64,000 nt of DNA from an uncultured Candidatus Saccharibacteria bacterium (GTDB lineage Bacteria; Patescibacteriota; UBA1384; DTJR01): positions 4,875 through 68,874 of the forward strand of contig CAZAOT010000001.1 in NCBI GenBank assembly GCA_964487045.1. The letters are read 5' to 3'. The translations under genes and the position numbers were made by a program. Shown one piece after another: positions 4,669 through 47,427 of the stretch (position 1 is the first letter of the stretch; each line of letters starts with the position of its first letter). Below the pieces are notes generated by a model. That model did no database searches. It worked only from the letters and a program-made list of their open reading frames with translations, and was not told the DNA's origin.

Positions 4669-5757
<1,089 letters not shown>

Positions 5758-33893: not shown

Positions 33894-34147
33894 TCTGCTC
33901 CCAAGTCCTTAATGACCGACCCATAATCTCGAAGTGTTTTCTCTACACCCTTAGTAATCAGAGACTTATCGTTGCCAGAAATTTCCCCCGTAATTTTATT
34001 GAGCTCTCCGATTGGTATCAGGTAATTTTTACCAAAACGCTCAGACTTAATAAGCCCAGCCTTTACTCTTCTAAAGATCTGAGATCTGCTCATACCGATT
34101 GCAAGTGCGAAATCGGGGATAGTGATAAATTCCTTTTCATGTTGCAT
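33890..34147 (-). CDS. helix-turn-helix antitoxin partner of Doc
   Basis: 85 aa. N-terminal excisionase/MerR-like HTH (FITIPDFALAIGMSRSQIFRRVKAGLI). Translationally coupled to doc. Confidence 0.75.
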   Translation of the reverse strand: MQHEKEFITIPDFALAIGMSRSQIFRRVKAGLIKSERFGKNYLIPIGELNKITGEISGNDKSLITKGVEKTLRDYGSVIKDLGAE

Positions 34148-34155
34148 ATAAGTAT

Positions 34156-34195
34156 ATTATGAAACATATGTTGCATCTTGTCAATAGTATGCAAC
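34156..34195 (-). promoter_or_regulatory. TA-operon promoter with overlapping inverted-repeat operator
   Basis: On the minus strand: TTGACA (34184-34179), 17 nt, then CATAAT (34161-34156). GTTGCAT (34170-34176) and ATGCAAC (34189-34195) flank the -35 box. A third GTTGCAT copy covers the start codon (34141-34147). Confidence 0.6.
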
Positions 34196-34196
34196 C

Positions 34197-34221
34197 AAAA
34201 AGAACCATCTTGCAATGGTTC
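34197..34221 (-). terminator. putative intrinsic terminator (minus strand)
   Basis: GAACCAT (34202-34208) pairs with ATGGTTC (34215-34221), with a T-run on the minus strand (plus-strand A-run 34197-34201). Confidence 0.4.
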
Positions 34222-34533
34222 CTTCGGGTGTCTAGCTATAAACTGGTTCGAAGATAGCTTAAACTCTTAACATAAGCTTACCATGAGTTGTCAATGGGGG
34301 TTAGGTAATATAAAAAGCCGGTTTGTTGCCGGTATTTCATTTTTGGCGGAGCGATTTTTGAGAGCTTTTGCGAGGTGGAATCGCAAAATTCCTAAGCAAA
34401 AATCTAATGTATGAGGGATTCGGTCAGCGGTCAAAATTTGCTATTTTTTCCTTATGGAGGGATCCTCGTAAGGCTGGGCAAAGCCCATCTTCCTTGCGCA
34501 CCCTCGTCGAGGGTTCGATCCTTTCCCTCGCAG

Positions 34534-34558
34534 AAATAAAACACCGACACGAGGTCGG
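34534..34558 (-). terminator. terminator downstream of tRNA-Ser(GCU)
   Basis: CCGAC (34544-34548) pairs with GTCGG (34554-34558), with T-rich tracts on both sides, immediately 3' of the tRNA. Confidence 0.5.
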
Positions 34559-34569
34559 CATTTTATTTC

Positions 34570-34659
34570 TGGCGGAGAGGGAGGGATTCGAACCCTCGGG
34601 CCCCTTGCGAGACCAACACATTAGCAGTGTGTCCCATTCGACCACTCTGGCACCTCTCC
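34570..34659 (-). tRNA. tRNA-Ser (anticodon GCU)
   Basis: 90 nt. Acceptor GGAGAGG/CCTCTCC, anticodon arm ACACA-CTGCTAA-TGTGT, long variable arm, T arm GAGGG-TTCGAAT-CCCTC, encoded CCA. Confidence 0.92.
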
Positions 34660-34722
34660 ACTCCTGAAATTTTAGCACAAAAAATGAAAAACTCAATTAA
34701 TTGCTAGCTTATTTGAGACTCT

Positions 34723-35628
34723 CTATTTTTTAAGCTCTAGGTAGACCAAAGTCCAGTATGATGAGAAATAAGCCTGTACGATGCCAGCTAGAAAAAACAT
34801 CACGGCCAAAAATGGAATTCCTAGAATTATCGAATAAACGACGGTACTGATTAGGCCGAGCGTCGTATAAACCCCGAAACCAATTAGGGAAAGTATCAGA
34901 CCGATGACTCCGATAACTATCAAAATCCCAAGTCCAGCACCCATATTTAGAACCATTTGTAGAAGCATCGCTAAAATCGAATTGCCAAGATTAGCTTTAA
35001 TTTTTCTAAGAGATCTTACAAAAGCCTCGTAAGTACCTGCCTTTTCCAGAACAATTTCCCTCTTGGCATATTCGACTGTTGGAACTAATCCAAAGCAGAT
35101 TAAAATCATTCCAAGAATGCCGACGAATACTAGGATTCCACCCAAAATGTAAATCGGTAGCGCCTGAACAAAGACCATAAGTAGAATTGGCATGGCCATA
35201 AATACTAACATCCAACCCATGACCAAGGCGCAGACTAACAGTCCGAGAAGAAATAATTTTCCAGCGTAACCCTTGCTAGATGCCCACGCCTGTGAAAAAT
35301 TCTTGAAGTGAGTTTTATTTTCAATTTTATCTACTGAGTTTATAAGCCCTGCTTCTGCTCGAAGAGATAAATAAATAAAAACAATTGCCAAGACAAACAT
35401 GATAAGGGTAGCGATAATTATCGCTGATTCGTGCGTTGAGACCCAATTTGAAATATTATCAGCAATAGGACCAACCTGATCTGATTCATTCATGTTATAT
35501 CCAGAGGACATGCTGTTTGGCATACTGCTTGATCCACCTGCCAAGGAAGCAAGTACTCCAAGACCCCATAAATATCGGTAATGTTTTATATTCTGGAAAG
35601 ATTTCGAAATAATTTTGCCAAAGTCCAT
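34723..35628 (-). CDS. polytopic membrane protein, unknown function
   Basis: 301 aa, about 6 TM segments, AT-rich native composition. Confidence 0.65.
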   Translation of the reverse strand: MDFGKIISKSFQNIKHYRYLWGLGVLASLAGGSSSMPNSMSSGYNMNESDQVGPIADNISNWVSTHESAIIIATLIMFVLAIVFIYLSLRAEAGLINSVDKIENKTHFKNFSQAWASSKGYAGKLFLLGLLVCALVMGWMLVFMAMPILLMVFVQALPIYILGGILVFVGILGMILICFGLVPTVEYAKREIVLEKAGTYEAFVRSLRKIKANLGNSILAMLLQMVLNMGAGLGILIVIGVIGLILSLIGFGVYTTLGLISTVVYSIILGIPFLAVMFFLAGIVQAYFSSYWTLVYLELKK

Positions 35629-35700
35629 ATTTTCTCCAATTTATTTATATTTTAATTATAAACTTTTTTTTAGGAGTTTGTCTTCTGCTAGAATAATACT

Positions 35701-36828
35701 ATGAAGCGAGATACTAAGATATTTATTACTCTGCTAATTTTTTTCCTAGCAGTTTTGGCTTTCTTCTGTAAGAAGGAGTATGAAAATCTTGATTATTTTT
35801 TGCCGCTTGCTAACTCGATCTTGCATGGAAAATTCAGTGTTAATTGCAACCTAGCGCTAAACGAACTCGTAAACATCAAAAATAGATGCTTTGTAGTTTA
35901 TCCGCCGGCGCCGGCGATCGCACTACTACCGTTTGCGCTTTTATTTGGCAGCAAATTAAGCCAAGTATACCCTGGAATCATCTATGCCTCGCTCGCCGGC
36001 GCCTTGTTCTATCTGGTTCTAAGACGTCTCACAAAAGAACCAGAAGCAATAGCGCTTAGTTTATTTCTGATGTTTGGCACTAATTTCTTCATGATTTCGC
36101 TGATTGGAAGGTCATGGTATTTTGCCCATGTCACCGGAATATTTTTCATGGTTATTTCAGTACTCTTTGCCCTCAAAAAAAAGCCATACTTAGCTGGAAT
36201 TTTCTTAGGCTTAGCTGGCATGAGCCGTTTGCCGATGCTCTTTGCTTTTCCAGCAGTCTTATATCTTCTCAAACCTACCAAAAAAGATTATATAAAGTTT
36301 TTTATTCCAGTTAGCGCAGTTGTTCTTATTTTCTTAGCCTATAATTACTATCGTTTCGGCTCGATATTTCAAACTGGCTACTCCCTGATTCCGGGAGTGC
36401 TTGATGAAGCTTGGTACAAGCAGGGGATTATGTCGCTTAGCTATATACCTAGAAATCTCAAAGCGATGTTCCTGCAAATGCCAGAATATATATCCGTTTT
36501 CCCTTGGTTTGTTCCCAAGACTTATGCCATGGCCTTGTGGCTAACTTCGCCGGCCCTTCTGCTTCTTGTTTTTGGCCTTAAGGACAAGCGCTCCTTAGTA
36601 ATGATGCTGAGCTTCGCTTTAATAATTTTCACCGATTTAATGCACGGCGCGGTCGGATTTAGTCAGTTTGGTTACAGATTTGCGCTTGATGGAATGATTT
36701 TTCTTATTATCGCGATGATTCCAGCCCTTGAGTCACAGCCGATACTATCACTAAGCTTAATCTTTGTAAGTGTAGTGATAAACTTTTACGCTGTTTTGGA
36801 ATATGCGCTTGGTTACTTTCATCCTTAA
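35701..36828 (+). CDS. polytopic membrane protein, probable GT-C-fold glycosyltransferase (ArnT/PMT-like)
   Basis: 375 aa, about 10 TM segments. Functional call is tentative. Confidence 0.55.
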   Translation: MKRDTKIFITLLIFFLAVLAFFCKKEYENLDYFLPLANSILHGKFSVNCNLALNELVNIKNRCFVVYPPAPAIALLPFALLFGSKLSQVYPGIIYASLAGALFYLVLRRLTKEPEAIALSLFLMFGTNFFMISLIGRSWYFAHVTGIFFMVISVLFALKKKPYLAGIFLGLAGMSRLPMLFAFPAVLYLLKPTKKDYIKFFIPVSAVVLIFLAYNYYRFGSIFQTGYSLIPGVLDEAWYKQGIMSLSYIPRNLKAMFLQMPEYISVFPWFVPKTYAMALWLTSPALLLLVFGLKDKRSLVMMLSFALIIFTDLMHGAVGFSQFGYRFALDGMIFLIIAMIPALESQPILSLSLIFVSVVINFYAVLEYALGYFHP

Positions 36829-37220
36829 ATATCGATTCTGCTATAATTAATCTGTACTAATTTTTCTGCAAAACATTTACTTCTGCGTGAAGTATCTCAA
36901 AAGAGGGGGCACCCCGATTAAATTTACATATTTAACGGGTCGAGGTGACGTACTTTTTTCGCCTAAAATCTGATAGGTAATCGTTCAGTCTCGCCTGGCA
37001 CCCTATTGCATAGCGCGATAGAACTATCACAAGTCTAACAACCTCTTTTTGCTCGCTTTGTTAAAGTCGAAATCATTTCTTTGGTTTTTACAAAGTAGAG
37101 CTAAGCGAAACCAGTCGCTATTATTAGTTTTTTGTTCGAAGGAGGGGAAAATTCGGCAATTGTTTTGTTAGTGATTTTTTTCATACTAATGAGTGGGCGG
37201 TAAGATTTTAAAAAATATTT

Positions 37221-37264
37221 AAACAAAAGAGGCGGGAGCGAAGGGGTTGCCCTTCGCTCCCGCC
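37221..37264 (-). terminator. intrinsic terminator of the GC-rich small-protein operon
   Basis: GGCGGGAGCGAAGGG pairs with CCCTTCGCTCCCGCC (37231-37264), followed on the minus strand by TCTTTTGTTT. Confidence 0.8.
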
Positions 37265-37270
37265 GGGATG

Positions 37271-37423
37271 CTACGCGCTTTTCGCGCGCTTGATGTGGTA
37301 GGCGAGTGAGATGATGGCGCACACCCCACAGAAGAATGGGATTGCGCGTATGTGCTCACCTCCATAGGCCTCAATAAGGCCGCCAGTGACCAGCGATAGA
37401 ATCGAATAGCCCAGAAGACTCAT
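37271..37423 (-). CDS. 50-aa two-TM peptide (gene D of GC-rich operon)
   Basis: MSLLGYSILSLVTGGLIEAYGGEHIRAIPFFCGVCAIISLAYHIKRAKSA. RBS TAGGAG overlaps the stop of gene C. Not in the ORF track because of its size. Confidence 0.55.
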   Translation of the reverse strand: MSLLGYSILSLVTGGLIEAYGGEHIRAIPFFCGVCAIISLAYHIKRAKSA

Positions 37424-37433
37424 CGTGATACTC

Positions 37434-37709
37434 CTATTCTAATCCCAGAGTTGCTCCGCCGGCAAAGCGGCGTTCTGTTTCAGCGAGGAGAGCCTTTCCC
37501 TCGATCGTCACCATGTTGTCCGACATGATTCCTTGCTTGTCTGGACAAATGATGAGTTCTGCTTCGCCTGTCAGTCTGACTTCAGCGGAACTCGTTTCCG
37601 CTATCTCGACAAAAAGAGGTGGCTCGTGTGAGCCAGACTTATTCTTCAGACAGACCCAGATACGCGAGCCGACAGGTTGGCGCCTGAGGTCGAAGAAGTT
37701 TAGCTTCAC
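37434..37709 (-). CDS. 91-aa soluble protein (gene C of GC-rich operon)
   Basis: GTG at 37709, preceded by GAGGAGG. GTGA start/stop overlap with gene B. VKLNFFDLRRQPVGSRIWVCLKNK... No family recognised. Confidence 0.6.
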   Translation of the reverse strand: MKLNFFDLRRQPVGSRIWVCLKNKSGSHEPPLFVEIAETSSAEVRLTGEAELIICPDKQGIMSDNMVTIEGKALLAETERRFAGGATLGLE

Positions 37710-37927
37710 GCTACCTCCTCGCTTGACGCTTCGGCTGTTTCTTCTCTTCTTCCTCTGAACGAAGAGATGATGGCAAGGCCGCCACAGAAGATGCAATTGC
37801 CGCTTGCGAGGAGAGTCACTGAGACTGGCACGTCCTGCTTGATGTAGAGAATACCGAGCAGGACAAGTCCCATGGCGATTAGTCCGAGACCGCTAAGGAT
37901 CAGGCTTATATCCGGTTTGTATTTCAT
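37706..37927 (-). CDS. 73-aa two-TM protein (gene B of GC-rich operon)
   Basis: MKYKPDISLILSGLGLIAMGLVLLGILYIK...NCIFCGGLAIISSF. RBS AAGGGAAAG. Starts 15 nt after the gene A stop. Confidence 0.65.
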   Translation of the reverse strand: MKYKPDISLILSGLGLIAMGLVLLGILYIKQDVPVSVTLLASGNCIFCGGLAIISSFRGRREETAEASSEEVA

Positions 37928-37942
37928 TGGTGCTTTCCCTTT

Positions 37943-38077
37943 CTAGCGCGTGAATGCGAACTGGGGAAGGTGCTGCCAGGCGAGAGCAATGGCAGCACAG
38001 AAGATGATCACTAGTCCTACCAAGGCGAGGTAGGCCGGCAGATTGTGCCTTTCTGATTCTAGGAATCTTAGTCGCAT
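37943..38077 (-). CDS. 44-aa single-TM peptide (gene A of GC-rich operon)
   Basis: MRLRFLESERHNLPAYLALVGLVIIFCAAIALAWQHLPQFAFTR. RBS AGGGAGAGGG lies 3 nt upstream of the ATG at 38077. Confidence 0.5.
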   Translation of the reverse strand: MRLRFLESERHNLPAYLALVGLVIIFCAAIALAWQHLPQFAFTR

Positions 38078-38204
38078 GATCCCTCTCCCTATGTCAAGTT
38101 TCTTGTGTTTTACAGAATTAGGATATTTTACATCAAAAAACCCACCTTATCAAGGGTGGGCGATCATTATTTGATCAGATCATGATATATTAAATGTCTT
38201 AGTC

Positions 38205-38233
38205 TTGAAAACTTTGCGCATAAGAAGTAGTAT
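38205..38233 (+). promoter_or_regulatory. promoter of tRNA-Arg
   Basis: TTGAAA (38205-38210), 17 nt, then TAGTAT (38228-38233), 11 nt before the mature tRNA 5' end. Confidence 0.55.
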
Positions 38234-38244
38234 TACCCTGATAT

Positions 38245-38321
38245 GCACCCGTAGCTCAGCTGGATAGAGCGTTGGCTTGCGGAGCCAAAGGTCGTAGGTT
38301 CGAATCCTATCGGGTGTACCA
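38245..38321 (+). tRNA. tRNA-Arg (anticodon GCG)
   Basis: 77 nt. Acceptor GCACCCG/CGGGTGT, D arm with A20, anticodon arm TTGGC-TTGCGGA-GCCAA, T arm GTAGG-TTCGAAT-CCTAT, encoded CCA. Its last 6 nt are also the first 6 nt of IR-A. Confidence 0.9.
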
Positions 38322-39776
38322 GTACGGAAATGTCAAATTTTGGGAGTTTGCGCCGCCTGCGGCGGCGACTAAATTGTAGGGAATTTTTGCTTCAAAATGC
38401 CACTTTCGATTCTGTAAGAAATGGTTCGAGCCGATATTTTTGAGAAATGTTAGAATTTCCGAATAATCTTCGGAATTTTTTAGTTTATCTGCTTTGGCAA
38501 GCGATAAAATGAACTCTTTGGCCGGTTCGAGCCAAGACAATCCTTTTTGTTCAAAATCTGTAATTTTTTCGTTAATCTCCAGCTTTTCGCTAAGTAGCTT
38601 TTGTTTTCGCAAAGTATATTCTTCGGTTGTAATGACTTCGCTCAGATATACATCGAGTAATTTTTCAAGCTGTTTCGTAATTTCTTCGAGCTTTACTTTG
38701 AGATTTTGAACAGAAGTTTTAGCCAACGTTCTTGCTTGAGTTTCTTGTTTCTCTAATTCAAACAAAACTTTTTTGGTATCTTGGCTCGACAAAGAAACTT
38801 TTTGTAAATACCCATTTATTTGCTCAACGAGTTTTTCTTCTCGCAGATAATGCTTTTCTTGGCAACCACTTTTCTTTTTTGTGCATCGGTAATAGTTGTG
38901 GCCTTTTTGTATTTCGGCAGTAATCGCACAGCCGCAACTTTTACATTTCATAAGCCCAAGAAAAGCAAAATGATGTTTTTCCTTTTTGCGAGGCTTGCCA
39001 CGATCTTTCAATACTTCTTGGCATTTATCAAAAAGTTTCTTTGGGATTATCGGTTTGTGTTTTCCTTCGTATATTTCGCCGTTATATTTCATTAGCCCAA
39101 TGTAGAAAATATTTTGTAGAATTGAATTGATATTGCTGATAGAAATCCTCTTGTTGAGATTCCCGAATAACATGTCATCTTCCGCCCAATTTGCGAGAGA
39201 ATTAAAGGTATATTTGCCGGTTGAATAGAGCTCAAAAAGCTTTCTGACTTTTCTAACCTTTATTTCGTCGACATCAATATTTCTTGTTCTCGGATTATTT
39301 ATATAGCCAACCGGCGCCCAGCCGGGCCAAACTCCATTTCGTATTTTTTGCCTTAACCCTCGTTTTACATTCTCTCGCAAATTGTCTACAAAATATTTTG
39401 ATTGACCAAAAGCAATGTTCAACATGAAAATCCCTTGAGGTGTTGGTTCAAACCAGAACGAAGGAAAACACAAGGATTTGATTTTCTGCCGGTCTATCAT
39501 GTGGATTATCTTTCCACCGTCTACACTATTTCTTGCTAACCTGTCAGGGTGCCAACTCAAAATCCCTTCCGCCTTTCCTTTTTCGATCAATTCTAACATT
39601 TCAGCGAACTTCGTTCGACCAGGTTCTTTGGCAGTTTTGGCTTCGCACAGCGAAGCGACAATTTCAAGTTTTTCTTTGGCGGCAAATTCCCGAAGCTCAA
39701 CTAGTTGAGCTTCAATCGAAAGAACTTGTCTGTCATCATCTTCAGTACTTTTGCGAGCGTAAATTATGTAGCGCAT
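38307..39776 (-). CDS. large serine recombinase (integrase)
   Basis: 489 aa from the ATG at 39776 (RBS AAAGGAGG).
- MRYIIYARKSTEDDDRQVLSIEAQ resolvase catalytic domain (Ser10).
- Recombinase domain, zinc ribbon CKSCGC...YYRC...C, and a coiled-coil.
- AT-rich.
- The last roughly 36 codons lie in IR-A, and the stop lies inside the tRNA. Confidence 0.9.
   Translation of the reverse strand: MRYIIYARKSTEDDDRQVLSIEAQLVELREFAAKEKLEIVASLCEAKTAKEPGRTKFAEMLELIEKGKAEGILSWHPDRLARNSVDGGKIIHMIDRQKIKSLCFPSFWFEPTPQGIFMLNIAFGQSKYFVDNLRENVKRGLRQKIRNGVWPGWAPVGYINNPRTRNIDVDEIKVRKVRKLFELYSTGKYTFNSLANWAEDDMLFGNLNKRISISNINSILQNIFYIGLMKYNGEIYEGKHKPIIPKKLFDKCQEVLKDRGKPRKKEKHHFAFLGLMKCKSCGCAITAEIQKGHNYYRCTKKKSGCQEKHYLREEKLVEQINGYLQKVSLSSQDTKKVLFELEKQETQARTLAKTSVQNLKVKLEEITKQLEKLLDVYLSEVITTEEYTLRKQKLLSEKLEINEKITDFEQKGLSWLEPAKEFILSLAKADKLKNSEDYSEILTFLKNIGSNHFLQNRKWHFEAKIPYNLVAAAGGANSQNLTFPYWYTR
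38316..38415 (+). repeat. IR-A, left copy (100 bp)
   Basis: Manual base-by-base comparison with the reverse complement of 39817-39916 gives 98/100 identical (mismatches at 38398 and 38407). Contains the palindrome CGCCGCCTGCGGCGGCG. Confidence 0.9.
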
Positions 39777-39816
39777 TTTCCTCCTTTTAATTTCATAAAA
39801 ATTTTCTTTTACAATC

Positions 39817-39916
39817 ACAGAATCAAAAGTGGCAATTTGAAGCAAAAATTCCCTACAATTTAGTCGCCGCCGCAGGCGGCGCAAACTCCCAAAATTTGAC
39901 ATTTCCGTACTGGTAC
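39817..39916 (-). repeat. IR-A, right copy (100 bp, inverted)
   Basis: Reverse complement of 38316-38415 with 2 mismatches. Lies upstream of the recombinase start. Its outer 7 nt (CTGGTAC) are shared with IR-B. Confidence 0.9.
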
Positions 39917-40004
39917 TCTATCCTGAAAATTGTTCGAACGTATTTTGGCCGCGAAGCGGCCGAGAAAACACCCCCGAAAATTCCCGACTGAAATTCTGAA
40001 CTTT
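39910..40004 (+). repeat. IR-B, left copy (95 bp)
   Basis: Manual comparison with the reverse complement of 40970-41064 gives 95/95 identical. Contains the hairpin GGCCGCGAAGCGGCC. Confidence 0.92.
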
Positions 40005-40133
40005 CAAAACTGCCAAAGAATCTGTTTCAAAAATATCGGCTCGAATCCATTAGTTTGTAAAAGAAAATTTTTATTAATTCAATCAGCACTGATTGATTTT
40101 TTATTCTTCTTGGTATATGCTTTTATTCAACAA

Positions 40134-40175
40134 TCGAAAGCAGAAATATTGAGTTTCTCAATTTCCTGCTTTCGA
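40134..40175 (+). promoter_or_regulatory. long imperfect hairpin upstream of the cargo gene
   Basis: TCGAAAGCAGAAATATTGAG, loop TTT, then CTCAATTTCCTGCTTTCGA: a roughly 19-bp stem with small bulges. An alternative CCTGCTT/AAGCAGG stem lies at 40165-40181. Sits about 37 nt before the cargo RBS. Confidence 0.4.
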
Positions 40176-40225
40176 AGCAGGAAAATCTCTGTACAGGCCA
40201 CAAGGCCGTGCAAGGAGTGAGAACA

Positions 40226-40846
40226 TTGTCTAAGGTCAACAGTATCCAGCTCACGTGTCTCAAGCCGAATGACTGTTCCACCCGACTTGCTCTTCCCGAA
40301 GTCACCTACGACTTTCGGGTGTGGGCTATCATCAACGACCTTGAGAAGGCCGTTGAGAAGGCGGGCGGTGCAACGCTCGCAGTCTTCGCGGGTGTTCCGT
40401 GGGAGTACGGGAGCCGCTCGGTCAACTTTCTCAACTATGTGGCCGAGATGGTGGTGAGAACAAACCGCGGCAAAGGGGAATTCATCGGAAGAAGCTATCT
40501 TGCGAGTGGCGGGATGTCACGGCTCGCAAGCTTGATGAAGGACGTTCGGCCAGACGGACAGATCAGAGCTGTGGTCGACCAAATCACGCGAACAATCTGG
40601 TCCGACCAGCCGATCCCGCGCGGTTTGCCCGACAATCTCTGGTACGAGCAGACGGACTACGAGTCGTTCTGCATCAAGTCGGGCAAAGGTGACATCATCA
40701 GGTGGGTTCCCGAGAATCAAGTTCAGGAGGAGCGGACGATGGGATTTCTCCGCTTGGAGTTTGAGGAGCCCTCTGTCAAGCACTTCTGTCAGCTAATTCA
40801 ACAGCTACATCGCTTTCCGGGTGTGGCCGAGTTCGCCAACGGCTAG
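40226..40846 (+). CDS. orphan GC-rich cargo protein of the recombinase element
   Basis: About 206 aa from the TTG at 40226 (AAGGAG 8 nt upstream); GTG at 40208 or 40217 are alternative starts. G/C-ending codon bias. No family recognised. Followed by a terminator. Confidence 0.65.
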   Translation: MSKVNSIQLTCLKPNDCSTRLALPEVTYDFRVWAIINDLEKAVEKAGGATLAVFAGVPWEYGSRSVNFLNYVAEMVVRTNRGKGEFIGRSYLASGGMSRLASLMKDVRPDGQIRAVVDQITRTIWSDQPIPRGLPDNLWYEQTDYESFCIKSGKGDIIRWVPENQVQEERTMGFLRLEFEEPSVKHFCQLIQQLHRFPGVAEFANG

Positions 40847-40869
40847 CTGTAGACCGGAGTACAAGCAAC

Positions 40870-40898
40870 AGGCAGACCAGCAGTGGCCTGCCTTTTTT
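40870..40898 (+). terminator. intrinsic terminator after cargo gene
   Basis: AGGCAGACC pairs with GGCCTGCCT (one mismatch), followed by TTTTTCTT. Confidence 0.6.
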
Positions 40899-40969
40899 CT
40901 TGCCGCCAAAGGAGAAATCTGCTAAGATTTCTCTAGTGAGCGAAGCTCACTAAAAAACTTGAAATTGTC

Positions 40970-41064
40970 AAAGTTCAGAATTTCAGTCGGGAATTTTCGG
41001 GGGTGTTTTCTCGGCCGCTTCGCGGCCAAAATACGTTCGAACAATTTTCAGGATAGAGTACCAG
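40970..41064 (-). repeat. IR-B, right copy (95 bp, inverted)
   Basis: Perfect reverse complement of 39910-40004. Ends with GTACCAG at 41058-41064. Confidence 0.92.
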
Positions 41065-41186
41065 AATAAAATTTGCCCCTCGCGGGCTAATTTTATTATT
41101 TGGGAACCATAGGATTCGAAGGCCGCAGCGAGCGTAGGCGAGCGAGGCGGGGTCGATGAATTTGCCAGCAGGCAAATATCAGTGAC

Positions 41187-41208
41187 CGAATCCTATCGGG
41201 TGTACCAG
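41187..41208 (+). repeat. direct repeat of tRNA-Arg 3' end (att-type site)
   Basis: 22/22 identical to 38301-38322. Followed by hairpin ATATGAC...GTCATAT plus T8 (41210-41248). Confidence 0.85.
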
Positions 41209-41288
41209 AATATGACCCCGCACAAGTGGAGTCATATTTTTTTTATTGATGTTGTTTGATGAGCGGGGTAAAATTAAATAAATAATTA

Positions 41289-41828
41289 ATGGCAAATTAT
41301 ATGAACGAAGATACAAAGCATAAGTTTCTGTTAGCAATTTTGATTATATTGATCATAGTGCTCCTAGGCTTGGTTGGGCTTATCTATAGACAGATTAAGT
41401 CTGCTAGAGACGTGGCAGCTCGAGAGGATGGCTTGGTGTCAAGCTCAGCTACAATCGCTCCTACGGACAATATCAGTGTATCCTACGACTTGGGGTCACC
41501 AAGCAGCGCAAATACGGAGATACTTGATGGCGTTAAGGACGTCGCAAATAGGTTTATGCAAGCCAAAGAAAATCGATCTCTAGAAGAAGCCAAGCCTTAT
41601 ATGACTGAAGATCTATTTAAGTCGACAGCTCAGGAAGAATTCGCTGGAACGTCTAGTCCGTCAATGGATCGATTTGAGGTTAAAAGTGCCCAAGCGGTTA
41701 AGACTCCAAATACTTATGAAGTTGATGTGGTTAGCTACTGGAAATTAAACGGCGAAGATGCCGAAACGGTTAATTATAGTTTGATAGTTATAAAACAAGA
41801 CGAAAATTATCTGGTTAGTAAATTCTAG
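41289..41828 (+). CDS. hypothetical membrane-anchored protein
   Basis: 179 aa with an N-terminal TM helix (FLLAILIILIIVLLGLVGLIY). AT-rich. Confidence 0.65.
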   Translation: MANYMNEDTKHKFLLAILIILIIVLLGLVGLIYRQIKSARDVAAREDGLVSSSATIAPTDNISVSYDLGSPSSANTEILDGVKDVANRFMQAKENRSLEEAKPYMTEDLFKSTAQEEFAGTSSPSMDRFEVKSAQAVKTPNTYEVDVVSYWKLNGEDAETVNYSLIVIKQDENYLVSKF

Positions 41829-41981
41829 TCCTATTATTTTGATAGAGGACCTCTTAGAGCATTTCGGCTCTACTGATTTTGATATATTTTTCTAATATTT
41901 CAAACAACCTTAATTATATCTGGCAACACAAATAATAATTATTTTTTGGCCAAACACAATTAAGGTTGTATTTAAGTTAAC

Positions 41982-42293
41982 TTAGATATTAAACTTGTCT
42001 GCGTACTGTCCAATGATAGGTAACGGCTTTTCTTGTCCTCCAACTGCATTGATTATACCCATAATCCAGAGGATGAAGACGACTAAACCTCCGACGATGG
42101 AGATGATCTGTCCGATCACCGGTATCACATTAATAATGCTTACCGCTATCGAAGCGATGATCAAAACCAAACCTTGCTTGATGTGAAATTTTACAAACGC
42201 ATCGTTCTTCGCATCAGTTAACAAGGGAACCACGATCAAGATACCTAGATAACACAAAACAGCCATTCCAATATTTTTACTTCCTTCGGCCAT
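41982..42293 (-). CDS. DUF4870-type small membrane protein
   Basis: ATG at 42293, preceded by GGTGGGTGA. MAVLCYLGILIVVPLL...KFHIKQGLVLII is typical of DUF4870. Confidence 0.7.
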   Translation of the reverse strand: MAEGSKNIGMAVLCYLGILIVVPLLTDAKNDAFVKFHIKQGLVLIIASIAVSIINVIPVIGQIISIVGGLVVFILWIMGIINAVGGQEKPLPIIGQYADKFNI

Positions 42294-42437
42294 ATTATCA
42301 CCCACCTTTCTTACTAAATTGTAGCAAAAATTCTGATAAGTAAATACCTTTTAAAATTTTGATTATTATGCTTGCTTTAGCGTGGTTTATCTGGTAAAAA
42401 ATGCATATCACGACCATGTTCGAAGGATGGTGAGCAG

Positions 42438-42635
42438 ATGGCCAGGCATATGAGTTGGCGTAAAGGTGGTCGGGCGAGACCCAAGAGGTGTCACCGAGAG
42501 CAACCGGGTCACCCCGATCCGCAAGGTGCCCAGTGGCGTCACGAACGGTACATCGAGCAGATGCGCGCAAGCCTGAAGCCGGGACAGCTTGAGGCCCTTC
42601 AGGCGCTCAGCCACGGTTACCACAGGTACCGATGA
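42438..42635 (+). CDS. possible 65-aa highly basic protein of GC-rich island 5 (could instead be non-coding)
   Basis: ATG preceded by AAGGATGGTGA. Followed by hairpin AGAGTCTC/GAGACTCT (42656-42692) plus a T-rich run. The composition-biased sequence makes coding status uncertain. Confidence 0.35.
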   Translation: MARHMSWRKGGRARPKRCHREQPGHPDPQGAQWRHERYIEQMRASLKPGQLEALQALSHGYHRYR

Positions 42636-42717
42636 ACCACGAGCGCAGTCGTATCCAGAGTCTCAAGCTGGTCTTGTACCGGCGCGAGACTCTTCTTCTT
42701 TAATGATTGATTTTCCG

Positions 42718-43452
42718 TTATTTCTCTTGCCACACTTCTGTGATTACCTGTCTATTTTTTTTGAGGCCCGAACTTAGTGCCCAGCCATCTGCGGTTACAA
42801 ATGCGCATGCGGACTCGCCCCTTCCTCTGGGAATGATTTCTGCAGTTGGGGAAATTGCTCTTACGGATGCGACGGCTTGTTGTAAATCCTTTGTATCAAC
42901 TCGGGGAGAAAAAATAGTGTCGAGAACCTTGAATTGACTTTGCTTTACAGACTCGCCAATATGAGCGATTTGCTTTGCTGGAAGTCGGTATAGGATATGA
43001 CTTAGTAAAATAAAGAACTGGCCATCTTTTTCTAGACGCATCATTAGTGGGCAACAGTCCTTGGCTCTATCAGTATAAGCGCTAACACCACTGTCTGCTG
43101 GTAGAATAACAGCTGCGCTCCAGTTACTTTCATCAATGTAAACAACTTTTCCATCTTTATTTGAAAAAACAGGCATCTCTCCAGAATTATATGATCGAAT
43201 TGTTTGCCCATTCTCATCTTTAATATCCTCTATGGGTCCCTCGATCACAAATTGTTTATCTAAAGTTTCAGTCGGGCCTTCTCCTGAAAATATCATAACT
43301 TTAATGTTGCGGTACTGGTCCAGGATTTTTGCTCTTTTTTGTTCATCGTTAGGATCTTCGGGGGCAGCAGGTGCGCTTGGTATCTCCGTCATACGTTGAT
43401 CGTTAGGGGAAAGATTTTCTGGGTCTATCTGCGAGCGGCTTTCGTTAAGCAT
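42718..43452 (-). CDS. hypothetical protein
   Basis: 244 aa with an acidic, Pro-rich N-terminus. No family recognised. Downstream of tRNA-Ser(UGA) on the same strand. Confidence 0.65.
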   Translation of the reverse strand: MLNESRSQIDPENLSPNDQRMTEIPSAPAAPEDPNDEQKRAKILDQYRNIKVMIFSGEGPTETLDKQFVIEGPIEDIKDENGQTIRSYNSGEMPVFSNKDGKVVYIDESNWSAAVILPADSGVSAYTDRAKDCCPLMMRLEKDGQFFILLSHILYRLPAKQIAHIGESVKQSQFKVLDTIFSPRVDTKDLQQAVASVRAISPTAEIIPRGRGESACAFVTADGWALSSGLKKNRQVITEVWQEK

Positions 43453-43496
43453 AACTAGCCTTTAAACTATTATTTAAAATATGTAATATTCCCTAC

Positions 43497-43586
<90 letters not shown>

Positions 43587-43677
43587 CTCCGTCCTCTATT
43601 CTACGGAATTCTATCTTATTTTAGCAATTATTTCAATCCATTTACTAATTATTTTATATTTCCGCTATCTTTTGCTC

Positions 43678-43706
43678 TTGATTGTATGGGTATATTCTAG
43701 TATTAT
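43678..43706 (+). promoter_or_regulatory. sigma70-type promoter of GC-rich island 6
   Basis: TTGATT (43678-43683), exactly 17 nt, then TATTAT (43701-43706). Confidence 0.6.
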
Positions 43707-43750
43707 GACGTGACGAGAATTCGCGTTCATTACAGAGGAGAGAGTGCCAT

Positions 43751-44179
43751 ATGTGTAAGAAACTGATATTTGCTAGTACGCTGGCACCGAAACTCTACTG
43801 CTTGTGCACACCGAGTGAGGAGTTGCTGGAGGTCTTGCTTGAGCGTGCCAAGGACGATGAGTGTCGCGCCGAGCCACTTATGGTGGCCGAACAGGAGATC
43901 GAGTTCGGGCCAGCCAACTATCTTTATGACGAGGCCCGCATGCGCGTCTGTGAGGCTAGTGCAGGCATGGCTACGGTCATGATCCAGGTCGGTAGTCATG
44001 CTGATGGAATTCGATCAGTGCTTGTGCCTGTTGGCGAGAAGGAGGGTGATGACGAAGCCCTGCCTGAAGGGGCTTTGATGCCAGGTATCGGTTGCCCGAT
44101 GGAATGTCTGCTGGGCCTGGGGCTGTTTTGTCTCGTGATCAAAGGCGGCATTTGCGCCGTCCATTATCTGCTCGGCTAA
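43751..44179 (+). CDS. orphan Cys-rich protein with C-terminal TM helix (GC-rich island 6)
   Basis: 142 aa. RBS GAGGAGAGAG. C-terminus GIGCPMECLLGLGLFCLVIKGGICAVHYLLG. Confidence 0.6.
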   Translation: MCKKLIFASTLAPKLYCLCTPSEELLEVLLERAKDDECRAEPLMVAEQEIEFGPANYLYDEARMRVCEASAGMATVMIQVGSHADGIRSVLVPVGEKEGDDEALPEGALMPGIGCPMECLLGLGLFCLVIKGGICAVHYLLG

Positions 44180-44200
44180 TGGCCGGGAGGGGAGTACAGC

Positions 44201-44512
44201 ATGTCTTTGTTTGGCAAAAAGGGAGAGCCGAAGCCGCCTAAGGTGAGGAAGGAGCGCAAGCCGCGCGCTCCGATCACCAAGGAGCGAGTCTTTGAAGGGT
44301 TGTTGGCTTTTGGCCGCAACCTGTTGCTGGTAGTGACCGTCGTAGGCATCTTGGCGCTCTCGGCGCTCGTCTACGTCCTGTTCCAGAAGATCGGCGGCGG
44401 CAGTAGCGACCCAGCAACGAAGAACCTGATTCTCGTCGCGACTGCGATGACGGCCGGAGGCGGCTTTTTCACGCTCTGGCTCGGCCGCACCTGGGGCATC
44501 ATCCCGTACTAG
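44201..44512 (+). CDS. orphan two-TM protein with Lys/Arg-rich N-terminus (GC-rich island 6)
   Basis: 103 aa. RBS GGGAGGGGAG lies 6 nt upstream of the ATG. Followed by a strong terminator. Confidence 0.65.
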   Translation: MSLFGKKGEPKPPKVRKERKPRAPITKERVFEGLLAFGRNLLLVVTVVGILALSALVYVLFQKIGGGSSDPATKNLILVATAMTAGGGFFTLWLGRTWGIIPY

Positions 44513-44535
44513 GGCTGATGCCTGCGAGCATCTTT

Positions 44536-44576
44536 GGCGGTTTGTCCGGTCACCCGGACAAACCGCCTTCTTTTTT
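44536..44576 (+). terminator. intrinsic terminator
   Basis: GGCGGTTTGTCCGG (44536-44549), loop TCAC, CCGGACAAACCGCC (44554-44567), then TTCTTTTTT. Confidence 0.85.
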
Positions 44577-44582
44577 AAAAAC

Positions 44583-44603
44583 AAAAAAATCGCCCTTTGG
44601 CGA
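44583..44603 (-). terminator. intrinsic terminator of the valS-TPR operon
   Basis: TCGCC (44590-44594) pairs with GGCGA (44599-44603), with a T7 run on the minus strand. Confidence 0.5.
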
Positions 44604-44644
44604 AATAGAGTTCTCTCGTTCTTAGCTCTTAGTTTTTAGTTTTT

Positions 44645-45286
44645 TTATCCTCCAATTTCAGTCTCGAAACCAAATTGTTTGGCTTTGGCGAACTCCTTCT
44701 TGGCGGTTGTATTGTCTTTTAGCTCTTGATAGGTGAGGGATAGAAGATAATGGGCTTGGCCGCAAAGAGGATCGATTTTAAGAGCTTGCTCGAAGGCCGT
44801 TTTAGCCTCATCAAATTTGTTAGCAACCAGAAGAACATGGCCTTGATTGATATATCCATCGCGCCACGAAGCATCTTTTTCAACTGCCAATCTTGCCGCT
44901 GCTTCGGCTCGTTCTACGTCTTTATTTTTCAAAAACTGCTCAGAAAGGGCGACAAATCCTAGGGCATCAGTAGCCTGCGAAGCAACTTCTGCTTTAATTT
45001 TAGTAATATGCTCTTCATAGGTTTGTTTTTGCGCTACCATTGCCGCTTCGTTTGATTTGGCCGAGTATTCATAAACTGACTTAATACCAATATAACTCAT
45101 CACGATCAAGGCAAAGACTCCAAGAACCAAACCGATGCCCTTAAAGGGCACCTTTTTCAAATTTATCGAAGTTATTAGGTCAATTGGCGAGTATTTAAAT
45201 GAAGAAAAAGAGGTAGCTGATTTTCGGTTGTGATGTAATTCGGCTTTTAATTGAGCCGAAAGATGATACGACTTTAGATTATTCAT
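44645..45286 (-). CDS. membrane-anchored TPR-repeat protein
   Basis: About 213 aa from the Met at 45286 (MNNLKSYHLS...); the longer track ORF would overlap valS. One TM helix and C-terminal TPR units (AKTAFEQALKIDPLCGQAHYLLSLTY). Confidence 0.7.
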   Translation of the reverse strand: MNNLKSYHLSAQLKAELHHNRKSATSFSSFKYSPIDLITSINLKKVPFKGIGLVLGVFALIVMSYIGIKSVYEYSAKSNEAAMVAQKQTYEEHITKIKAEVASQATDALGFVALSEQFLKNKDVERAEAAARLAVEKDASWRDGYINQGHVLLVANKFDEAKTAFEQALKIDPLCGQAHYLLSLTYQELKDNTTAKKEFAKAKQFGFETEIGG

Positions 45287-45321
45287 CCCCACCTTGTTAA
45301 GAATAAAAATTAAAAATTCGA

Positions 45322-47427
45322 TCAGAGAGCTGGCCAGGAAGCGTCGATGAGCATTTTGCTCTCTCGTTGCTCCTCGGGTAGCTCTTGCCAACATGCTTCA
45401 GTTACAAACGGCATGTATGGGTGAAGCAATTTCAAGCTTGTTTTCAATATTTTTGTAAGCTTTAAGAGAGACGTCTTTTTTTCTCGTTCATCGCCGCCAT
45501 AAAGACGTTTCTTTTCCTGCTCTATAATCTTATCAGCAAACTCATGCCAAATATAAGCGTACAAATGTTCGCCTGCTTGTGAAAATTTAAACTCATCGAT
45601 CAGTTTTGTAACTTCTGAAGTAACCTTATCCAGATTCTCTATATCTTTTTTATCTTGATCTGAAAAATTAGATTCCTCAGTATCAATTTCAATATTTTCC
45701 AGATTTGTTACTACAAATCTGGCAATATTCCAAATCTTGTTTGAAAAATTACGATACCCTCTGATTTTGCTTTCACCAAGGGCTATATCCTGACCTGCGG
45801 TAGTTCCGACAATCAAGGAATATCTCAGGGCGTCGGCGCCGTATTTTTCGATAATATCTATTGGATCAATCACGTTGCCAAGAGATTTGGACATCTTGCG
45901 ATTCTTTTCGTCCCTTACGAGGCCATGCAGGTAAACAGTCTCAAAAGGAGCTTTGCCTGTCAGCTCTAATCCCATCATGATCATCCTGGCGACCCAGAAA
46001 AACAAGATGTCATAACCTGTTTCCATGACTGTTGTTGGGTAGAAGTTCTTGTAATCTTCAGCATCTTTGTCTGGCCAGCCAAGAGTGGAGAATGGCCAAA
46101 GTCCACTTGAGAACCAAGTATCGAGTACATCTTCTTCTTGCACCCAGCCGTCACCCTCGGGAGCTTTTTTGCCAACATAAATTTCTTCTCCCTTATACCA
46201 AACCGGAATTTGGTGGCCCCACCAGAGTTGGCGCGAGATACACCAGTCGCGTATATTATCCATCCAATGGAAGTAAACTTTTTCAAAACGCTTTGGCATA
46301 ATTTTGATCTCGCCTGACTCCACCGTTTTTTTGGCTTTCTCGGTGAGTGGTTTCATCTTTACGAACCATTGCTTTGATGGAATTGGTTCAATTTGACCAC
46401 CGCAGCGGTAACAAGTGGCTATATTATGTTCGTAATTTTCTTCAATATGATCGATTAGACCCATTTTCTGCATATCTTCGACAATTGCTTCGCGAGCCTC
46501 CTTGGTCTTCATGCCGGTATATTTACCGGTGTTCTCCATCATGCGGCCGTTTTCGTCTATCACTTGTTTAAGTGGAATATCGTTGCGCTGAGCAATTTCA
46601 AAATCAACCAAGGAGTGAGCAGGGGTAACCTTGATCGCACCTGTGCCGAATTTTGGGTCGACGGCGTTATCAGCGACGACAACAATTTCAAAATCTCCCA
46701 GTACTCCCGGAATCATAAATTTCTTGCCAACCATATCCTTATATCTCTTATCGGTTGGGTGAACGGCGACTGCAGTGTCGCCAAGCTTTGTCTCTGGTCT
46801 AGCGGTAGCTAAGGTAAATGGACCATATTTAATCCAGTAGAATTTGCCAACTTCTGGTTTGTGCTCAACTTCATCATCGGCAATTGCGGTGTGGCAGCGG
46901 GGGCACCAGTTAACTGTGCGCAGCCCCTGATAAATAAGTCCCTTATCGTATAAATTTACAAATGCTTCTTTGACTGCTTCGGATAGTCCCTCGTCTAGGG
47001 TAAAGCGTTCTCTTGTCCAGTCACAGGAAGCACCAAGTTTTCTAATTTGAGAGGTGATAGTATTGCCGTATTCTTCTTTCCATTGCCAAACTCGCTCCAC
47101 AAACTTTTCACGTCCTAAGTCGTGTCGCCTCAAACCTTCTTTGGAAAGTTGCTTTTCGACAACATTTTGAGTGGCGATGCCAGCGTGGTCAGTTCCGGGA
47201 AGCCAAAGAGTTGGTTCTCCCCTCATGCGATGGTAGCGAGCCATAATGTCCTCGAGCGTTACGTACATACCATGGCCGATATGAAGTTTGCCGGTCACGT
47301 TTGGCGGAGGCATCGAAATAACAAAAGGTTTTTTACCTTCTTCTATTTTTGGAGTGAAGGATCCGCTATCTTCCCATTTTTTATATATTTCGTCTTCAAA
47401 AACTTTGTGGTTGTAAGCCTTATCCAT
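45322..47427 (-). CDS. valS: valine--tRNA ligase (short form)
   Basis: About 701 aa from MDKAYNHKVFEDEIY. PPPNVTGKLHIGH (HIGH), PGTDHAGIATQ and KMSKS motifs. Confidence 0.9.
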   Translation of the reverse strand: MDKAYNHKVFEDEIYKKWEDSGSFTPKIEEGKKPFVISMPPPNVTGKLHIGHGMYVTLEDIMARYHRMRGEPTLWLPGTDHAGIATQNVVEKQLSKEGLRRHDLGREKFVERVWQWKEEYGNTITSQIRKLGASCDWTRERFTLDEGLSEAVKEAFVNLYDKGLIYQGLRTVNWCPRCHTAIADDEVEHKPEVGKFYWIKYGPFTLATARPETKLGDTAVAVHPTDKRYKDMVGKKFMIPGVLGDFEIVVVADNAVDPKFGTGAIKVTPAHSLVDFEIAQRNDIPLKQVIDENGRMMENTGKYTGMKTKEAREAIVEDMQKMGLIDHIEENYEHNIATCYRCGGQIEPIPSKQWFVKMKPLTEKAKKTVESGEIKIMPKRFEKVYFHWMDNIRDWCISRQLWWGHQIPVWYKGEEIYVGKKAPEGDGWVQEEDVLDTWFSSGLWPFSTLGWPDKDAEDYKNFYPTTVMETGYDILFFWVARMIMMGLELTGKAPFETVYLHGLVRDEKNRKMSKSLGNVIDPIDIIEKYGADALRYSLIVGTTAGQDIALGESKIRGYRNFSNKIWNIARFVVTNLENIEIDTEESNFSDQDKKDIENLDKVTSEVTKLIDEFKFSQAGEHLYAYIWHEFADKIIEQEKKRLYGGDEREKKTSLLKLTKILKTSLKLLHPYMPFVTEACWQELPEEQRESKMLIDASWPAL

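Follow-up and report, generated by a model that had tools for sequence, protein, structure and literature searches.

Within the 64-kb stretch of Candidatus Saccharibacteria DNA analysed here (the window), an intact tRNA-Arg(gcg) gene is followed by a large serine recombinase (LSR) gene on the opposite strand and then by a single cargo gene, and this small region is built around copies of the heptamer GTACCAG and two sets of inverted repeats (Table 1). The heptamer occurs 9 times in the window, against 2.4 expected, and four of these copies, at 38316, 39910 (minus strand), 41058 and 41202, fall within 38316-41208; we refer to them as sites 1 to 4. An earlier note on this DNA had tabulated the four sites as combinations of a few arms, and both the positions and the sequences of that table were confirmed, every sequence quoted for the four sites being present in the window exactly as written. 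The common arms are far longer than those it showed. Arm A is 93 nt long and forms an inverted repeat around the recombinase gene, while arm Q is 88 nt long and forms an inverted repeat around the one-gene cargo segment. Counted with the core, the first repeat (IR-A, 38316-38415 versus 39817-39916) covers 100 nt with 2 mismatches near its distal end and the second (IR-Q, 39910-40004 versus 40970-41064) covers 95 nt with no mismatch, and the two overlap in the 7-nt GTACCAG only. The tRNA-type arm is a 22-nt exact direct repeat, CGAATCCTATCGGGTGTACCAG, found at 38301-38322 and 41187-41208. The open reading frame (ORF) of the recombinase runs through arm A and the core to a stop codon inside the tRNA 3' end, and copy 1 of arm A also encodes the last ~30 recombinase codons on the minus strand. 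An Rfam scan of 37900-41400 returned nothing besides the tRNA. We consider it likely from this layout, and from the comparisons described below, that 38316 to 41057 (2,742 bp) constitutes an integrated 2.74-kb mobile element, made up of an LSR gene and one cargo gene and inserted at the 3' end of tRNA-Arg(gcg), and that site 4 lies outside it.

Table 1 Features of the putative element and its immediate surroundings (window positions)
Feature	Position	Strand	Details
tRNA-Arg(gcg)	38245..38321	+	Intact; ARAGORN; Rfam tRNA, 69.8 bits
LSR gene	38307..39776	-	489 aa from ATG behind AGGAGG ribosome-binding site
Site 1 core block (putative attL)	38316..38322	+	GTACCAG; tRNA positions 71-77
Arm A, copy 1 (P' arm)	38323..38415	+	IR-A; A-arm hidden Markov model (HMM), E 3.7e-21
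Hairpin with T-run	38457..38484	+	On tRNA-sense strand; antisense inside recombinase 3' coding region
Arm A, copy 2 (inverted)	39817..39909	-	Upstream of recombinase start codon; IR-A, A-arm HMM
Promoter-like hexamers across site 2	39896..39924	+	Directed into cargo arc; TTGACA in A', 17-nt spacer, TATCCT in Q'
Site 2 core (putative attP, inverted)	39910..39916	-	Intact attP-type Q-core-A junction between two divergently oriented genes
Arm Q, copy 1 (inverted; P arm)	39917..40004	-	With GTTCGAAC 25 nt before CCA-equivalent position
C-terminal recombinase-like coding sequence (FKNIGSN), then copy of recombinase promoter region	39990..40082	+	Promoter-region copy TTGTAAAAGAAAATTTTTAT; upstream of cargo gene; inverted repeats I3, I4, I5, I24
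Cargo ORF	40226..40846	+	206 aa from TTG; 212 aa from GTG at 40208
Interrupted N-terminal recombinase coding piece (FAAKEK...KLEIV)	40900..40969	+	Adjoins distal Q arm; inverted repeats I7, I17
Arm Q, copy 2	40970..41057	+	IR-Q, arm HMM
Site 3 core (putative attR)	41058..41064	+	Right end of element
Locus-specific 122-nt stretch	41065..41186		Terminator-like hairpin (41065-41097), inverted T-loop/acceptor-like fragment (41098-41117, minus strand), GC-rich part
Site 4	41187..41245	+	22-nt copy of tRNA 3' end (41187-41208), then hairpin and T8 terminator

The earlier note had proposed a search for the same core and arms in related genomes. Relatives of the recombinase were collected in a genome scan and a metagenome scan, the latter giving >442 relatives from which 80 loci were kept, and arm HMMs were built and then used to annotate all loci (designated L with a number). 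The genome scan revealed recombinases 75-91% identical to that of the window in metagenome-assembled genomes of Berkelbacteria and Saccharibacteria, and those of the related loci as a whole are 63-91% identical. The double inverted-repeat layout of the window, in the order tRNA(+), A, recombinase(-), A', Q', cargo and Q, recurs at ~75 of 85 related loci from genomes and metagenomes of Candidate Phyla Radiation (CPR) bacteria. In addition, the same strain is represented by an independent Logan contig (L086, SRR11845624), which is identical to the window from inside arm Q (~41035) through site 3, the 122-nt spacer and site 4. As the L086 contig is identical and ~75 independent contigs have the double inverted-repeat layout, the arrangement is not an assembly artefact.

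A tRNA 3' end abuts the 3' end of the recombinase gene in 48 cases, which cover 23 anticodons and 13 amino acids; L036 alone has its tRNA at the recombinase 5' side. The core of the attP-type junction follows the target, since CCACCA is found in elements at tRNA-Ala and GCACCA in those at tRNA-Leu, and the close relative L094 lies at a tRNA-Arg(tcg) gene whose end also reads GTACCAG. A protein search with the recombinase as query gave at least 7,835 clusters (90% identity) at E 1e-20 or better, from taxa that include Patescibacteria, Parcubacteria, Kuenenbacteria, Jorgensenbacteria and Nealsonbacteria, and these clusters bear generic names only ("recombinase family protein", "Pin-like invertase", or 'DNA invertase Pin-like' in JGI). 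A scan of viral contigs gave one irrelevant 23% match, which indicates that the element is not phage-borne, and a literature search of incomplete coverage found no description of these elements. Taken together, they form a very large, apparently undescribed family of CPR (Patescibacteria) elements that inserts at the end of almost any tRNA gene and keeps a second, inverted attachment (att) site inside.

The nature of the sites was assessed by a three-way comparison of the junctions at sites 1, 2 and 3 in 34-49 loci and by a profile built from 51 site-3 junctions. Per locus, site 1 consists of the tRNA end joined to arm A, site 2 (as reverse complement) of arm Q, the same core and arm A, and site 3 of arm Q, the core and locus-specific sequence, a pattern that reads as the attL (site 1), inverted attP (site 2) and attR (site 3) of a serine integrase. 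The common junction block measures 2-10 nt and the target is not duplicated, there being no repeat of the tRNA end past site 3 at ~33 loci. The junction comparison therefore agrees with the earlier note on the types of the first three sites; its fourth, an attB-like site 4, has no match at those ~33 loci and is preceded by a stretch unrelated to the family.

The same junctions place the crossover. Identity between sites 1 and 2 starts at tRNA position 71 in 35 of 49 loci, and at positions 69-72 in 45 of them. For sites 2 and 3, the last identical position is 74 in 19 of 45 loci, 75 in 5 and 76 in 12. The dinucleotides 71-72, 72-73 and 73-74 each fit 25-27 of 34 loci as the crossover, whereas the central CA (75-76) proposed in the earlier note fits 11 of 34, identity mostly stopping after position 74. 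In the site-3 profile C74 is kept and C75 and A76 are not, and the information content after position 76 is zero. By homology, the crossover in the window would lie within the GTAC at 38316-38319, that is, tRNA positions 71-74. Dyad symmetry puts the centre of the site near positions 71-73, with indels between the half-sites preventing a firm call. The GTAC-CA-GTAC dyad, which had been taken for a feature of the integrase core, is likewise not borne out: it is missing from the family consensus (...AAGAATAct-GCACCA-gtAGGAAA) and is confined to the tRNA-Arg subfamily, GTACCA being carried by the window, L003 and L094 and most members having GCACCA or CCACCA, as their own tRNAs do.

Arm Q carries the motif GTTCGAAC exactly 25 nt before the position equivalent to CCA, the CCA being in register in 55 of 68 loci, and the T-loop sequence TTCGAAT lies 20 nt before the CCA in any tRNA. 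The zinc-ribbon motif of the LI integrase spans positions 16-24 of the attP half-site and 11-19 of the attB half-site, and this 5-bp shift underlies directionality (PMC3783163). The left half-sites of the family follow the 5-bp rule, in that a crossover at 72-73 puts the motif at 18-24 (attP) and 13-19 (attB). We read the T arm and acceptor 3' strand of tRNA-Arg as the B (left) half-site of the target, whose recognition appears to be one-sided, on the tRNA side. Together with a near-universal T loop (GGTTCGAAT), such one-sided recognition would account for the breadth of tRNA targets (23 anticodons).

The recombinase has the Pfam domains Resolvase (PF00239, E 6.7e-22), Recombinase (PF07508) and Zn_ribbon_recom (PF13408) and matches the integrase family phrog_95 in PHROGs (4e-74), which, along with structural matches to serine integrases, upholds its earlier assignment to the serine type. 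Its ORF is intact in the window, and the catalytic YARKST motif is invariant in 31 homologues. In an AlphaFold model the catalytic domain is poor, while the recombinase domain, the ribbon and a long helical hairpin (residues 331-411) are confident; this coiled-coil hairpin, modelled as helices 331-378 and 384-411 (predicted local distance difference test scores of 75-89), is inserted in the beta-ribbon region. The top Foldseek matches of the model are the SPbeta, LI (Listeria), Bxb1 and phiC31 integrases on att DNA (E 9e-11 to 1e-4). At the sequence level, a phmmer search against the PDB matched the catalytic domain only, similarity to the solved integrases being distant, and the protein falls below the NCBIfam equivalog cut-offs for CcrB (95.5 bits versus 900), XisF (90 versus 375) and CcrA (66.8 versus 700), and below those for CcrC (38.9 bits versus 900), YneB (37.2 versus 175) and IS607 (28.5 versus 110). 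The model thus points to an integrase-type LSR with a coiled coil, not a small invertase.

Since the ends of the element are arm A and arm Q, precise excision must make a Q-core-A junction identical to site 2 but inverted. It follows that a precisely excised circle would hold two identical attP copies in inverted orientation, parting a recombinase arc from a cargo arc. We tested ~12 element-size contigs for terminal overlaps and found none, and exact-protein look-ups of the recombinase and of the GTG-start cargo protein gave no match. L047 and L085, which have a Q-core-A junction at the site-3 position, were considered as circles and rejected; they are tandem or chimeric and truncated copies. 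We also dropped the idea that the element integrates as a single-stranded dumbbell, because recombination of this form with a double-stranded target would give hairpin-capped chromosome ends, unlike the layout observed.

With respect to orientation, 48 cases have the tRNA on the 3' side of the recombinase and 1 has it on the 5' side, and two landmarks of the cargo arc are oriented 20:0 and 10:0. The earlier note had likened the circular form to the yeast 2-micron plasmid, with two inverted attP copies dividing a recombinase arc from a cargo arc. This division does follow from the ends of the element; flipping of the arcs finds no support in these counts, and a replication gene is absent.

Two regulatory signals bear on the fixed orientation. 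A hairpin with a T-run, similar to the one on the tRNA-sense strand of the window, is present in 33 of 76 loci, with compensatory changes in the stem (TTCCGAA/TTCGGAA versus TTCTGGA/TCCAGAA), and on the other strand in 0 of 76; that of the window (38457-38484) is likely to be a replacement terminator for the tRNA. Across site 2, a sigma-70-like pair of -35 and -10 hexamers with a 17-nt spacer reaches a score of 8 or more out of 12 in 68 of 71 loci; at attL, 1 of 49 does so. The presence of a terminator-like hairpin and of a promoter-like motif at the junction suggests an explanation for the prevailing orientation. Weighing these observations, we favour a role for site 2 mainly as a cargo promoter and recombinase-bound operator between divergent genes, rather than as a second integration site.

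The cargo ORF has a GC content of 56%, against ~38% around it; GC patches of 53-60% also occur at 37300-38050, 42400-42700 and 43750-44650 in addition to the patch formed by the cargo gene (40150-40900), the rest of 34000-46000 being at ~38-40%. The cargo protein of the window has no family match in PADLOC, NCBIfam, PHROGs or Pfam. The exact protein, as read from the TTG start, was found on Logan contigs bounded by Q repeats. In the relatives, the cargo arc is 0.6-3.3 kb long and nearly always contains a single gene, mostly unrelated between loci, examples being a short-chain dehydrogenase (SDR), a subtilase, an APH-type kinase, HisG, a dihydroorotate dehydrogenase (DHODH), an IS30-like transposase, a propeller protein and many orphans.

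The cargo arcs of the window and ~20 other loci contain pieces of the recombinase gene in constant positions, the C-terminal piece with the promoter copy lying by Q' and the N-terminal piece by Q. The N-terminal FAAKEK...KLEIV piece is 30-35 nt long and always lies at the site-3 side (20:0 across loci), and the position of the C-terminal piece and promoter copy is conserved 10:0. The FAAKEK boundary is also the exact point of truncation of a recombinase copy in L085. In L002, L010, L021, L026, L035, L036 and L058, the place of Q or of the tRNA beside the recombinase arc is taken by a third type of arm, R, whose spacing is of the attP type and whose distal part is GC-rich. Larger cargo arcs do occur: the two inverted R arms of L002 (reverse complement 111-199 and 4706-4794) bracket an arc of 4.5 kb that contains one ORF of 852 aa and another, DNA methyltransferase-like, of 444 aa.

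Neither site 4 nor the preceding 122 nt appears to belong to the element. No copy of the tRNA end was found downstream of site 3 at the ~33 other loci compared, the 122-nt stretch has no BLAST relative in 84 other loci, and among the arm HMMs only that of arm A matched it, at 1.6 bits (E 0.038), which we treated as noise. On its minus strand, 41098-41117 (TTCGAATCCTATGGTTCCCA) forms a second, inverted T-loop/acceptor-like fragment, not called as a tRNA by ARAGORN or Rfam. When the element was removed in silico, the tRNA end followed by AATA matched site 4 followed by AATA, leaving 26-nt direct repeats around a 118-nt remnant. Site 4 is probably the relic of an older tRNA-targeted island that was almost wholly deleted, the element having inserted later into the restored tRNA end; comparable stacking or remnants are seen at L004, L057, L082 and L085. 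With most of the B half-site kept, site 4 could act as a pseudo-attB.

A different view of site 4 is that one system uses all four sites, site 4 being the true attB partner and right end (which would make the element 38323-41208), with crossover at the CA of the GTAC dyads and 2-micron-like flipping of the arcs. GTACCAG is indeed common to the four sites, site 4 looks like a usable attB, with 17 of 19 B half-site positions kept and a good terminator after it, and in L036 the recombinase arc is flipped relative to its tRNA. We nevertheless regard this as unlikely: the ~33 other loci have no counterpart of site 4, the stretch before it is unrelated to the family, only 11 of 34 loci fit a CA crossover at 75-76, the dyad lacks conservation, the orientations are fixed (48:1, 20:0 and 10:0) and a replication gene is absent.

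The two copies of each arm are highly similar within an element. Their median identity is ~99%, and of 108 pairs (inverted repeats of at least 80 nt) 74 are identical at 98% or above; arms are only ~64% identical between loci, and the repeats end sharply ~95 nt from the core, far beyond the half-site. The comparison indicates concerted evolution of the arm copies. Decay is clear in some relatives: site 2 is missing from L001, L073 and L080, L004 has an 80-aa internal deletion in its recombinase, and the recombinases of L082 and L085 are truncated. For L001, a different crossover (TGTCAAATTT) was considered and dropped, as a deletion between two 10-nt microhomologies that removed site 2 explains the sequence better. 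Such decay (L001, L073, L080, L004, L082 and L085), together with the debris between sites 3 and 4, might suggest that the copy in the window is itself an immobile, decaying remnant whose four-site pattern has no present function. This seems to us still less likely than joint use of all four sites, as its recombinase ORF is intact with the catalytic YARKST motif, its inverted repeats are 98-100% identical around an intact site 2, and the arrangement is also present in an independent sample.

Several loci show further complexity at their borders. L057 has two elements in one tRNA cluster, and L057, L082, L085 and L047 are tandem or stacked elements and truncated copies; L085 and L047 have their Q-core-A junction at the site-3 position, and in L047 a chimeric arm leads into a second cargo arc. 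In L004 (reverse complement ~5876-6006), 8 nt separate a complete tRNA-Leu(tag) gene from a 44-nt 3' piece of another tRNA-Leu, and it is this piece that joins arm A. At L052, L064, L069, L054 and L057, the next tRNA gene begins within a few to ~60 nt of site 3; in L052 the element lies at tRNA-Ile(gat) and tRNA-Ala(tgc) follows it after 13 nt, a combination typical of the spacers in rRNA operons. The Berkelbacteria loci L001 and L003 have a common stretch (…CATTCGACTCT…TCGCTCA…) ~60-120 nt past site 3, which may be a small conserved chromosomal feature.

The least probable alternative, that the locus is an invertible switch (phase-variable or shufflon-like) fixed in the chromosome, in which the recombinase inverts its own gene and/or the cargo, draws on the two adjacent segments in ~95-nt perfect inverted repeats that meet at a common core, on the JGI label 'DNA invertase Pin-like' and on the promoter-like motif that inversion could switch at the junction, and is very hard to reconcile with 23 tRNA anticodons and unrelated cargo genes that demand mobility, with a single orientation of both segments in essentially all loci, with the fact that inverting either arc regenerates identical junctions and switches nothing at the sites, and with an integrase-type LSR with a coiled coil in place of a small invertase.

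For a mobile element at the tRNA end, we propose the following course of events. An attP of the form Q-core-A would have recombined with the end of the tRNA gene, with crossover within positions 71-74, which comprise the end of the acceptor stem, the discriminator base and the first C of CCA. The T loop (GGTTCGAAT) would serve as the distal half-site motif of the target, its counterpart in arm Q (GTTCGAAC) lying 5 bp further out. Insertion would leave tRNA-core-A at site 1 (attL) and Q-core-flank at site 3 (attR), with no duplication. The element would give the tRNA a new terminator, functional in the observed orientation only, and the internal site 2 would act mainly as cargo promoter and recombinase-bound operator. 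Excision and re-insertion would then proceed with no separate directionality factor.

Several points weigh against this interpretation. Canonical LSRs excise only with a directionality factor, and no gene for one is evident, as the element has two ORFs and the second is unrelated between loci, which leaves no conserved candidate; the factor may be encoded by the host, or the enzyme may be independent of such a factor. A canonical attB has two recognised half-sites, and in the 51 junctions the right half of the target has no conserved positions, giving an attB in which two half-sites are not recognisable. A circle with two identical attP copies should integrate both ways, yet one orientation prevails 48:1. 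The Logan contigs reached by look-ups of flanking proteins and of the TTG-start cargo protein showed no circle, empty site or inverted isomer, these short-read contigs stopping at repeats. The crossover is not narrowable below a 4-nt block, with L033 and L069 favouring different dinucleotides, and the view of site 4 as a relic is argued from parsimony alone. Finally, ordinary cycles of integration and excision do not homogenise arm copies. Candidates for a homogenising step acting on attP are repair within a folded intermediate and templated regeneration of one copy from the other. We put forward, as a tentative proposal more open to doubt than the assignment of the element itself, that these elements are a hitherto unrecognised class of minimal CPR gene shuttles, with an integrase arc, a single-gene cassette arc, a one-sided attB in the tRNA T arm and acceptor that would make nearly every tRNA gene a landing site, no directionality factor and an attP pair kept identical by an extra step, and that they may represent a transposition pathway new for serine recombinases.

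The element can be compared with several known systems. Like the phage-type large serine integrases (Listeria A118/LI, SPbeta, Bxb1 and phiC31), it combines a catalytic domain, a recombinase domain and a zinc ribbon with a coiled-coil hairpin, it has hybrid attL and attR at a short common core with no target duplication, and the attP half-site has its distal motif 5 bp farther out than the attB half-site does. It differs from them in being a 2.7-kb element with a single cargo gene rather than a phage, in the distant sequence similarity of its enzyme, in targeting many tRNA 3' ends with an unconserved right half-site, and in having an inverted attP copy inside and no evident directionality factor gene. 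In the small non-phage elements Tn4451/Tn4453 (TnpX) and Tn5397 (TndX), the LSR alone excises the circle and inserts it, with no separate directionality factor; their circle joint resembles the target, with a GA crossover and target sites like their own ends, and the circle joint of Tn4451 forms a promoter. The element of the window is similar as a small non-phage element moved by an LSR, its factor-free excision being inferred only, and differs from them in its target, the tRNA acceptor and T arm, and in having an internal inverted joint and inverted repeats that bracket genes.

The yeast 2-micron plasmid has a tyrosine-type recombinase (Flp/FRT) and replicates autonomously, with two flip isomers coexisting. 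The putative circle would resemble it in being split by two identical inverted sites into arcs, one with the recombinase gene; unlike the plasmid, the element has no replication gene, with only a recombinase and variable cargo in 2.74 kb, and its orientation is essentially fixed. The res site of Tn3/gamma-delta is an operator, and circles of insertion sequences such as IS911 form junction promoters. Site 2 resembles res as a recombination-type site between divergent genes, where binding of the recombinase could repress both; as in IS911-type circle junctions, the -35 and -10 are supplied by the two sides of the junction, with the difference that the promoter-like motif of the window is permanently assembled in the integrated element and not only in a circle. 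The invertible segments of Hin/Gin and shufflon systems also have inverted bracketing sites, like those formed here by IR-A and IR-Q; both orientations would be expected of such segments, and the counts here are 48:1 for the recombinase arc and 20:0 and 10:0 for the cargo-arc landmarks. Among tycheposons and other tRNA-integrating islands, 910 of 937 use tyrosine recombinases, each specific to one tRNA and with ~40-nt flanking repeats of partial tRNA, and they stack in tandem and leave partial tRNAs and degraded remnants (bioRxiv 10.1101/2020.12.28.424599). These are likewise small cargo elements at tRNA genes, with stacking and remnants as in L057, L082, L085 and site 4 of the window, whereas the family described here uses an LSR, has no flanking repeat in ~33 loci, the 22-nt repeat being found in the window only, and reaches 23 anticodons with a single protein family.

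The element is of a known enzyme class and follows known attP/attB logic. What is new relative to the systems compared is the minimal build from two arcs, the inverted attP that is obligatory inside the element, the targeting of many tRNAs from one side and the single-gene cassette as cargo. An integrase whose specificity lies on the conserved tRNA T loop and acceptor end, which ignores the other half of the target and which apparently has no directionality factor, would be unusual for recombinase biology and engineering. The family is spread over Parcubacteria-type lineages, Berkelbacteria and Saccharibacteria. Little is known of how CPR bacteria, with their tiny genomes, exchange genes. The cargo seen so far includes enzymes of metabolism and secreted proteins, and one larger arc has a DNA methyltransferase-like ORF; a 3-kb element that takes one arbitrary gene and its own promoter to any tRNA end would be a simple and abundant vehicle of gene flux in these bacteria.

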